Source of the DNA: a virus
Taxonomy: Duplodnaviria; Heunggongvirae; Uroviricota; Caudoviricetes
Strand: one strand, 5' to 3'
Virus record (IMG/VR): IMGVR_UViG_2541047695_000003
Length of the DNA: 34,489 nt
Position numbers and translations under genes: made by a program. Below, in pieces: positions 17,744-18,650 of this stretch (position 1 is the stretch's first letter; the number at the start of each line of letters is the position of its first letter). The notes beneath the pieces are model-generated. The model was not told the DNA's origin. It saw only the letters and a program-made list of their open reading frames with translations, and made no database searches.

Positions 17744-18040
17744 ATGGGATATTGGGTAAGTAGTGAAATTAATACTAAAATCGATGCTTTAAAATGGCAT
17801 GTATTTGATATTCCTAACGGCTATGGTACTGCTCGTGCTGGTGTCGCTGTAATGCGTCATAATGCTGGTGGTGGGTGGTCTGATGCACATATTAACGTAG
17901 ATGGTTTGACCGTTGCTCGTCGTCGTGGTGGGACCAATTGGGGATCTACTATAAATTCGTTTGTTCCTGCTGGCTGCACCGTCTCCTTTGGTTTAGGGGG
18001 TGAAGGTGGTGTTGAATATTTTAAATTCATGGAGTTTTAA
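17744..18040 (+). CDS. Small Gly-rich protein, tandem paralog 1 of 3 (98 aa)
   Basis: Shares W-x...FDIPNG(W/Y)...G-rich loop...(V/A)(T/S)(F/V)-x-LG...YFKF with the next two ORFs; AAGGAT SD. Confidence 0.7.
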   Translation: MGYWVSSEINTKIDALKWHVFDIPNGYGTARAGVAVMRHNAGGGWSDAHINVDGLTVARRRGGTNWGSTINSFVPAGCTVSFGLGGEGGVEYFKFMEF

Positions 18041-18042
18041 TT

Positions 18043-18348
18043 ATGGCTGGATGGATAAATCAAAGAATGTCAAACGCTATTAGTATTTGGGCTAATGGTG
18101 GATATTTTGATATCCCCAACGGCTGGGTTACTGATTCATGCGGAATTGTTTTTGCTCATATGGAAGCCATTAACGGTGCTGGTGATCTTGATTCTGAATT
18201 GGCTGTAAATGGATTGATTGAATCAGGTCATCATGCTGGTGATGCTGGGAGTTGGGGCGCTAGTTCTTTAGTTGGCGCTGGTGCTACCGTTAGCTTTACA
18301 TTGGGTAAAGGTAGTTTGCATTATTTTAAATTCAGGAGAATGCACTAA
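18043..18348 (+). CDS. Small Gly-rich protein, tandem paralog 2 of 3 (101 aa)
   Basis: Starts 2 nt after the stop of paralog 1; YFDIPNGW and TVSFTLGKGSLHYFKF motifs. Confidence 0.7.
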   Translation: MAGWINQRMSNAISIWANGGYFDIPNGWVTDSCGIVFAHMEAINGAGDLDSELAVNGLIESGHHAGDAGSWGASSLVGAGATVSFTLGKGSLHYFKFRRMH

Positions 18349-18650
18349 TGGCATTTTGGGTAGATGGCGCTTTGGGGAATAGGGCGGGTAAAGCAAATCA
18401 AGGATGGTTTGATATTCCTAACGGTTGGACAGCCGACGCTTTCGGGACTATTTCATTCTGTGCTCATTCTTCCGGTGGTGGCGGTGGTGACTCTGAATTG
18501 CTTATTCATGGTTTGTGTGTTTCTGGAAGCCATAAGGGTCATGATTGGGGACAGATTCATTCTTGTATTGCACCGCAAGGGGCGGTAATTACCGTTAGCA
18601 CAAATAGGGGGATCGCTCATCTTCGTTATAGACGTTTGAGCAACCGCTAA
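18348..18650 (+). CDS. Small Gly-rich protein, tandem paralog 3 of 3 (100 aa)
   Basis: TAATG overlap with paralog 2; WFDIPNGW motif, GGGGGD loop; C-terminus divergent (no YFKF). Confidence 0.7.
   Translation: MAFWVDGALGNRAGKANQGWFDIPNGWTADAFGTISFCAHSSGGGGGDSELLIHGLCVSGSHKGHDWGQIHSCIAPQGAVITVSTNRGIAHLRYRRLSNR

Follow-up and report, generated by a model that had tools for sequence, protein, structure and literature searches.

Three small consecutive genes, here called A, B and C (together, the trio), lie directly after the side tail fibre gene in a stretch of 34,489 nt of caudovirus DNA (IMG/VR record IMGVR_UViG_2541047695_000003). This whole stretch is referred to as the window. It carries the genes of a temperate siphovirus, including those for a large terminase, a portal, a protease-capsid fusion, tail assembly chaperones, a tape measure and a gpJ-like central fibre, and a prophage copy whose trio region is identical to that of the window was found in the chromosome of Escherichia coli PK8568. 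The trio is encoded on the plus strand. Gene A (17744-18040) encodes 98 amino acids, gene B (18043-18348) 101 and gene C (18348-18650) 100. A and B are separated by a gap of 2 nt, and B and C are joined by a TAATG stop/start overlap. Each of the three genes is preceded by its own Shine-Dalgarno sequence, a ribosome-binding site of the AGGA/GGAG type. A preliminary description of the locus had reported the same three tightly packed open reading frames (ORFs) between a tail fibre gene and a tube gene, and our analysis confirmed their lengths and coordinates, the gap, the overlap and both flanks.

In pairwise BLASTP comparisons, A and B were 43% identical (E 2e-12), B and C 36% (E 9e-15) and A and C 24% (E 6e-9). 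Judged from these alignments, the three are true paralogs, with a similarity far above the chance level. Their N-termini read MGYWVSSE (A), MAGWINQR (B) and MAFWVDGA (C), and W4, an FDIPNG motif, G33 and several further glycines are invariant among them. A and B have YFKF in their C-terminal regions; C has HLRY instead. The tryptophan near position 4, the FDIPNG motif, the Gly-rich features and the YFKF of the first two members had all been listed in the preliminary description, and they were recovered in the alignment of the trio. At some Salmonella and metagenome loci, the B orthologs are longer at the N-terminus by about 10-30 amino acids. When compared with their orthologs, all three genes were under purifying selection, with ratios of nonsynonymous to synonymous substitution rates (dN/dS) of 0.04-0.29 (0.13 for B). 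Therefore, they are real coding genes. C is the most conserved of the trio, and the alleles of A and B are more divergent than those of C. No transmembrane segment, signal peptide or lipobox was found in A, B or C, and the maximal 19-residue Kyte-Doolittle hydropathy was 0.68-0.90.

The preliminary description did not recognise the family, and neither did the databases. A, B and C had no significant family match among the Pfam, PHROGs, NCBIfam, PADLOC and PDB sequence profiles, and no profile search assigned them to a known non-structural family. Pfam returned nothing at E<=1 for A and B and only one unrelated sub-threshold match for C, and the Pfam C1q and TNF signatures were absent from all three. 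The anti-phage defence models of PADLOC gave no match at E<=1. The best PHROG results were weak matches to tail proteins (E 0.008 and 0.05). In the PDB profile search, NHL-repeat 'Pizza' proteins had only a short PNG-x-x-x-DSAG motif in common with the trio, which we judged to be due to chance. Among 5.8 billion clusters, a word-indexed search picked out 35 relatives, which were all labelled hypothetical and came from Escherichia, Shigella or Salmonella wherever the source was named. An exhaustive profile search of 1.84 billion representatives gave 19 matches, four of which were unrelated repeat proteins. These four (P0042, P0050, P0052 and P0054), NHL or other tandem-repeat proteins that scored by summing weak matches, were rejected as relatives, and the sole locus returned by a scan of GTDB genomes (L011) was spurious. 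The family was present in only three of 50,697 phage records (Krischvirus G37-3, G2248 and UPWr_E1) and in 24 of 5,426 complete E. coli genomes, where it was always chromosomal. Thus, the family is real, very small and undescribed.

The gene upstream of the trio (14181-17705, plus strand) encodes a gp37-like side tail fibre of 1174 amino acids. It was assigned to PHROG 1699, long tail fiber distal subunit (E 2e-136). In Pfam it has a Gp34_trimer domain at residues 644-745 and a Peptidase_S74 domain at residues 1064-1123, and it also matches gp37 of phage S16 (PDB 6F45; E 1.3e-5). The Peptidase_S74 intramolecular chaperone (IMC) domain (17373-17702, plus strand; PF13884, E 5e-15) scored above the curated cut-off. 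From what is known of this domain family, the fibre is predicted to cleave itself after Ser1064 (..NDVYIRS|DRRLK..), which would expose its tip. The motif around this site aligns with the gp37 motifs of RB3, phiS, Skers, G37-3 and G2248. The 38-nt spacer between the fibre gene and A holds a stable RNA hairpin (17712-17731, plus strand), with a minimum free energy of -14.4 kcal/mol and a z of -3.1. Analogous hairpins are found in the gp37/gp38 gap of RB3 and in the gap between gp37 and copy A in G2248, where the hairpin is annotated as a terminator. It might be speculated that the spacer hairpin lowers the expression of a cap made by the trio relative to that of the fibre.

We examined 25 loci of the family: the window, 14 siphoviral prophage loci of E. 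coli and Salmonella (L003-L007 and L012-L020), four loci of T4-like Krischviruses (G37-3, G2248, UPWr_E1 and KFS-EC) and six metagenome contigs of four divergent lineages (L021-L026). At all 25, the family was located directly 3' of a long fibre protein with a terminal S74-type domain. The cassette was complete and undamaged in 21 of the 25, and all 21 had exactly three members in the same order. Among the four exceptions, two contigs ended inside the cassette (L021 and L023), KFS-EC had a frameshifted A-C chimera and one prophage had a frameshift in B (L014, 8300-8518). In a neighbour-joining tree, the copies at position 1 formed one clade and those at position 3 another, and the copies at position 2 were mostly together. 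Identity within a position went down to 26-29%, and identity between positions was 15-42%. Thus, the triplication is ancient, predates all known members and has been retained as a set. A conserved ancient set of three genes argues against a recent expansion of variable copy number and for three non-redundant subunits. The preliminary description had proposed that the triplication allows host-range variation and had suggested a survey of copy number in relatives; with three copies in fixed order in every complete, undamaged cassette, and positional orthologs traceable to 26-29% identity, this proposal was not supported. In one prophage, the C copy has an A-like N-terminus (L004, 8605-8904; MGYWVYGVLDNK), which suggests recombination between alleles or paralogs.

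The position of the trio in Krischviruses is that of another gene. In G37-3, G2248 and UPWr_E1, it lies between gp37 and a 240-nt ORF, which is followed by the holin gene t. At exactly this position, between gp37 and the 240-nt ORF, the Krischviruses phiS and Skers have a gene for the 260-aa adhesin gp38. RB3 also has gp38 directly after gp37, and its gp38 matches the Pfam profiles GP38 and Gp38_N with E values of 9e-71 and 1e-19. Megablast showed that the window and G37-3 have a horizontally exchanged fibre-tip plus A-B-C module in common (15267-18666, plus strand; 87.5% nucleotide identity). The similarity runs from the middle of the fibre gene to 16 nt past the stop codon of C and is found nowhere else nearby. 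As it stops 16 nt after C, the trio moves with the fibre tip and not with the tube gene.

The opposite replacement was observed in prophages. E. coli TO6 and ETEC4085 carry prophages of the same siphovirus lineage with flanks 87-95% identical to the window, and blastn comparison with them showed that the segment 17661-18452 (plus strand) is replaced by a cassette with the 260-aa gp38. The replaced segment runs from the last part of the IMC through the hairpin, A and B to codon 35 of C. What is left of C in these sister prophages, its 3' two-thirds, is part of a 70-aa ORF that opens with the beginning of the Krischvirus 240-nt ORF. In TO6 (L036, 5844-6056), and also in P0026, this remnant starts with MVYNIIIGAN and joins C at the Gly run. 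Its structure shows that a Krischvirus was the source of the prophage's gp38 cassette, which came in by recombination inside the run of Gly codons. The junction of the A-C chimera in KFS-EC is at the equivalent Gly run (GGEGG|GDSELL). Therefore, the slot of gp38 is also that of the trio cassette, and the two replace each other in both phage backbones. The fibres of the two systems are also closely alike. Over its last 60 mature residues, the window fibre has 93% identity to gp37 from RB3 and Skers, which use gp38, and there are two different fibre-tip types, each of which was found with either gp38 or the trio. We also asked whether fibre-tip type and trio allele co-vary strictly; they do not, and the region is mosaic.

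The YFKF of A (18023-18034) and that of B (18322-18333) are encoded by an identical 12 nt, TATTTTAAATTC. The same four residues close the IMC tail (..KISKYFKF), at the extreme C-terminus, of those gp37 proteins that are paired with gp38 (L008, 4050-4064). The fibres linked to the trio end in ..RLAAIEAKLG, not in YFKF. The common YFKF could be due to chance from AT-rich codon use, or could be a trace of past recombination.

The two systems appear to exclude each other. No gp38 homolog was found in the complete genome of G37-3 (tblastn, nothing below E 1), and at the distal locus where some Krischviruses have gp38, G37-3 and G2248 have the flanks only. KFS-EC has nothing but the A-C chimera beside gp37, and its gp38 homolog (57% identity to RB3 gp38, E 1e-43) is encoded at the distal RB49-type locus. 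Thus, in both whole genomes checked, G37-3 and KFS-EC, one system is intact and the other absent or decayed. We considered whether a differing fibre tip had led to the decay of the trio in KFS-EC and dropped this idea, as two prophages pair the same tip with an intact trio (L016 and L018). The gp38 carried elsewhere in the genome is a better explanation. The distal gp38 of KFS-EC (L041, 345-1103; 153141-153917 in the record) is annotated as a hypothetical protein. In RB49, Phi1, JSE and KFS-EC, gp38 is about 55 kb from gp37 rather than adjacent to it, so that Krischviruses can be sorted into three classes: those with the distal gp38, those with gp38 next to gp37, and those with the trio next to gp37 and no gp38. 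Genes similar to gp38, annotated as 'receptor-recognizing protein', were also seen on 31 E. coli plasmids of 107-121 kb (H66-H73), which are presumably phage-plasmids. These genes have 64-75% nucleotide identity to RB3 gp38 over its C-terminal half.

AlphaFold2 models of A and C agreed with each other, with predicted local distance difference test (pLDDT) values of 81.6 for A and 80.6 for C. The modelled fold is an N-terminal helix (residues ~2-14), which bears W4 in A, followed by a jelly-roll beta-sandwich of 7-8 strands and about 80 residues. Glycine makes up about 17% of the trio residues and lies in short loops; the models are ordinary beta-sandwiches and not polyglycine-II. Foldseek searches of BFVD gave matches with E values from 4e-5 to 1e-2 and query-normalised template modelling (TM) scores of up to 0.69. 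The named matches were mostly tail-fibre, C1q-domain or collagen-repeat proteins, and the tail-fibre proteins included those of the Edwardsiella phages MSW-3 and eiAU and the Achromobacter phage Motura. The predicted jelly-roll resembles C1q/TNF trimers and the head domains of tail fibres, although jelly-rolls of carbohydrate-binding modules score equally well. The predicted fold thus supports a binding-head type of domain that is prone to form trimers, with scores that are moderate and a homology that is unproven.

Taken together, the sequence comparisons, the models and the analogy to gp38 lead us to propose that A, B and C probably form a detachable fibre-tip adhesin, presumably a heterotrimer, that replaces gp38 and helps to set the range of bacteria infected by the phage. 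The fibre would trimerise through its C-terminal Peptidase_S74 chaperone and, like other members of the family, would cleave itself after Ser1064 and expose its tip, on which the cap is proposed to dock. The packing of the genes suggests that A, B and C would be made in roughly equal amounts, by coupled translation of one late transcript. Each protein is predicted by the models to form a small C1q/TNF-like jelly-roll behind a short N-terminal helix. One A, one B and one C might then assemble into a pseudo-threefold heterotrimer, as the ancient and conserved set of three paralogs would suggest. In the monomeric gp38 of S16, three conserved tryptophans at the apices of helices fit three symmetric pockets on the gp37 trimer (PMC6851490). 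This mode of attachment, together with the presence of one W4 helix in each paralog, led to the proposed A-B-C cap: the three Trp-bearing N-terminal helices would, by analogy, replace the three-helix attachment domain of gp38. The segments concerned are MGYWVSS, MAGWINQ and MAFWVDG in the trio and PGWIGSS, QRWMSQA and PCWMSQF in gp38. At the other end of the cap, the distal Gly-rich loops might contact the bacterial receptor, which is speculative. Among the A alleles, the first 26 residues are identical and 22 of the remaining 72 positions differ (31%; Fisher p 0.0006). A constant N-terminus with a variable body parallels the pattern of gp38.

The proposal can be made more specific, though in this form we hold it as tentative and somewhat doubtful. 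The cap would be an obligate 1:1:1 pseudo-threefold heterotrimer, a viral counterpart of the C1q head made of three ancient paralogs, attached non-covalently by tryptophan plugs, one from each subunit, to a self-processed homotrimeric fibre. It would present three non-equivalent distal faces for asymmetric or combinatorial receptor recognition. Phages would then have evolved, independently of gp38, another way to do what gp38 does, in a cassette that moves between temperate siphoviruses and lytic T4-like phages.

Several observations weigh against a gp38-like adhesin. The trio proteins did not match GP38 or Gp38_N, and the alignment of the family to RB3 gp38 by hhalign had a probability of 0.4%. 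The N-terminal helix, on which the attachment would depend, was modelled at low confidence (pLDDT 51-61), and some divergent members have L, M, N or Y in place of its tryptophan. The allelic variation is spread over the body of the proteins and is not confined to discrete hypervariable segments (HVS) in the style of gp38. Among the E. coli loci, C is conserved to at least about 90%, and such conservation would be unusual in a surface that binds a receptor. S74-processed fibres can also do without a cap in receptor binding, T5 pb1 being an example. Finally, no description of the trio genes was found in the literature on gp38 and Krischvirus, on heterotrimeric adhesins, or on UPWr_E1, G37-3, G2248 and KFS-EC.

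It is also possible that the trio encodes assembly factors or chaperones that do not stay in the virion, but help the fibre tip to fold or to be processed by S74 and are then released, as T4 gp38/gp57A or lambda Tfa do. Like the trio, the genes of T4 gp38 and of the Tfa proteins of lambda and Mu are small genes directly 3' of the distal fibre gene, and the trio is strictly linked to the fibre. C is also as highly conserved as would be expected if its contacts were with the phage and not with the host. However, T4 gp38 and Tfa have no sequence match to the trio and are encoded by single genes, not by a paralogous set of three. The predicted jelly-roll, C1q-like fold is typical of binding heads, and the exchange is with the adhesin-type gp38 that carries the Pfam GP38 and Gp38_N domains, not with the chaperone type of T4. 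If the trio were chaperones, G37-3 would have no tip adhesin on a class of fibre that normally uses one. We therefore regard this explanation as unlikely. The preliminary description had named fibre chaperones and decoration subunits among the possible roles; both have become less likely because the fibre has its own S74 intramolecular chaperone and the cassette is swapped one-for-one with the gp38 adhesin.

Homotrimers are common among C1q/TNF-like domains, and the predicted fold of the trio gave matches of this type. Each paralog might thus form its own homotrimer and cap part of the fibres, which would give three alternative tips and a multivalent host range. The greater divergence of the A and B alleles compared with those of C would fit such a situation. 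However, alternative tips predict a variable copy number with loss or gain of single paralogs, and one A, one B and one C in fixed order were observed instead in all complete, undamaged cassettes, across deep divergence. The three genes also appear to be translationally coupled. We consider separate homotrimers rather improbable. Of the suggestion in the preliminary description that the trio encodes fibre accessory proteins such as alternative adhesin tips, the link to the fibre was upheld and the tip is the best-supported role; the interchangeable alternatives were not supported.

Genes beside those of receptor-binding proteins sometimes encode exclusion factors, and a non-structural cargo in a recombination hotspot, acting in superinfection exclusion, receptor masking or anti-defence like T5 llp or T1 cor, would suit the position of the trio; yet this is very improbable, as the trio has neither the signal peptide and lipobox nor the membrane anchor of Llp/Cor-type exclusion lipoproteins and no PADLOC match, keeps its synteny with the S74 fibre in both lytic T4-like phages and temperate siphoviruses, is swapped one-for-one with a structural adhesin and decays when gp38 is present.

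The proposed A-B-C cap can also be compared with three other known systems. The closest is gp38 of the T2/T6/S16 type (PF05268 GP38 and PF21721 Gp38_N; PDB 6F45). Like the trio, it takes the slot after gp37, has an S74-processed gp37 partner with a near-identical tip, and is separately encoded and glycine-rich with Trp-bearing N-terminal helices; in myovirus and siphovirus backbones, the two are interchangeable and mutually exclusive. The trio differs in having three paralogous chains of 100 amino acids instead of one chain of 260, and a predicted jelly-roll beta-sandwich instead of a polyglycine-II sandwich, without the alternating architecture of glycine-rich motifs (GRM) and HVS. The second is the C1q/TNF superfamily, which also includes BclA and the NC1 domains of collagens VIII and X. 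Compared with these, the trio domains are shorter (~80 residues), lack a sequence signature and are not covalently joined to the stalk, and the likeness suggested by the models may be convergent. The third comprises the covalent head or knob domains of fibres, such as the tail-fibre, C1q-domain and collagen-repeat entries of BFVD, which are similar to the trio in Foldseek. In them the head belongs to the fibre chain itself and is homotrimeric, whereas the trio consists of three separate genes after a fibre that discards its own C-terminus. A detachable fibre-tip adhesin, the most likely role of this undescribed family, is a known kind of system. A heterotrimeric C1q-like tip, which the trio could form, would be unusual for phage fibres.

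The genes around the fibre and the trio show further features. The tail tube protein encoded 3' of the trio has 156 amino acids (18705-19175), and a paralogous major-tail or tube-like gene of 277 amino acids (13274-14107) lies on the other side of the fibre; both belong to PHROG 158. As tube-like paralogs flank the fibre plus A-B-C on both sides, the side-fibre module appears to have been inserted inside the tube gene region. A terminator-like hairpin follows the 277-aa gene (14134-14151), and a strong one follows the 156-aa gene (19184-19203). Two other stretches of the window resemble Krischvirus DNA: 256 nt at 29953-30208 are 98% identical to inh, the inhibitor of prohead protease, and 75 nt at 3209-3283 are 84% identical to an unannotated region near gene 24. 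They, too, point to DNA having passed recently between the lineage of this prophage and RB49-like phages. The PK8568 prophage also has a gene that was annotated by PGAP as a NUMOD3-domain DNA-binding protein, similar to homing endonucleases (L035, 12012-12782; about 23.7-24.1 kb in the window). It lies between the distal tail genes and a DUF6950 gene.

Host range in T-even-type phages is determined mainly by the adhesins at the fibre tip, and it is these adhesins that are exchanged to re-target phages for therapy or diagnostics. The prediction of receptors in Straboviridae relies on gp38 and meets problems in genomes without a gp38 homolog (bioRxiv 10.64898/2026.04.02.716166). If the trio is a substitute for gp38, it would explain how Krischviruses such as G37-3, G2248 and UPWr_E1 recognise their hosts. 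UPWr_E1 is used in a phage cocktail for poultry. The trio would then also be a new compact and modular receptor-binding scaffold, and a rare example of a homotrimeric fibre that bears a heteromeric cap. The reciprocal exchange of the cassettes documents that genes have recently passed, at the receptor-binding locus, between prophages of E. coli and virulent T4-like phages.
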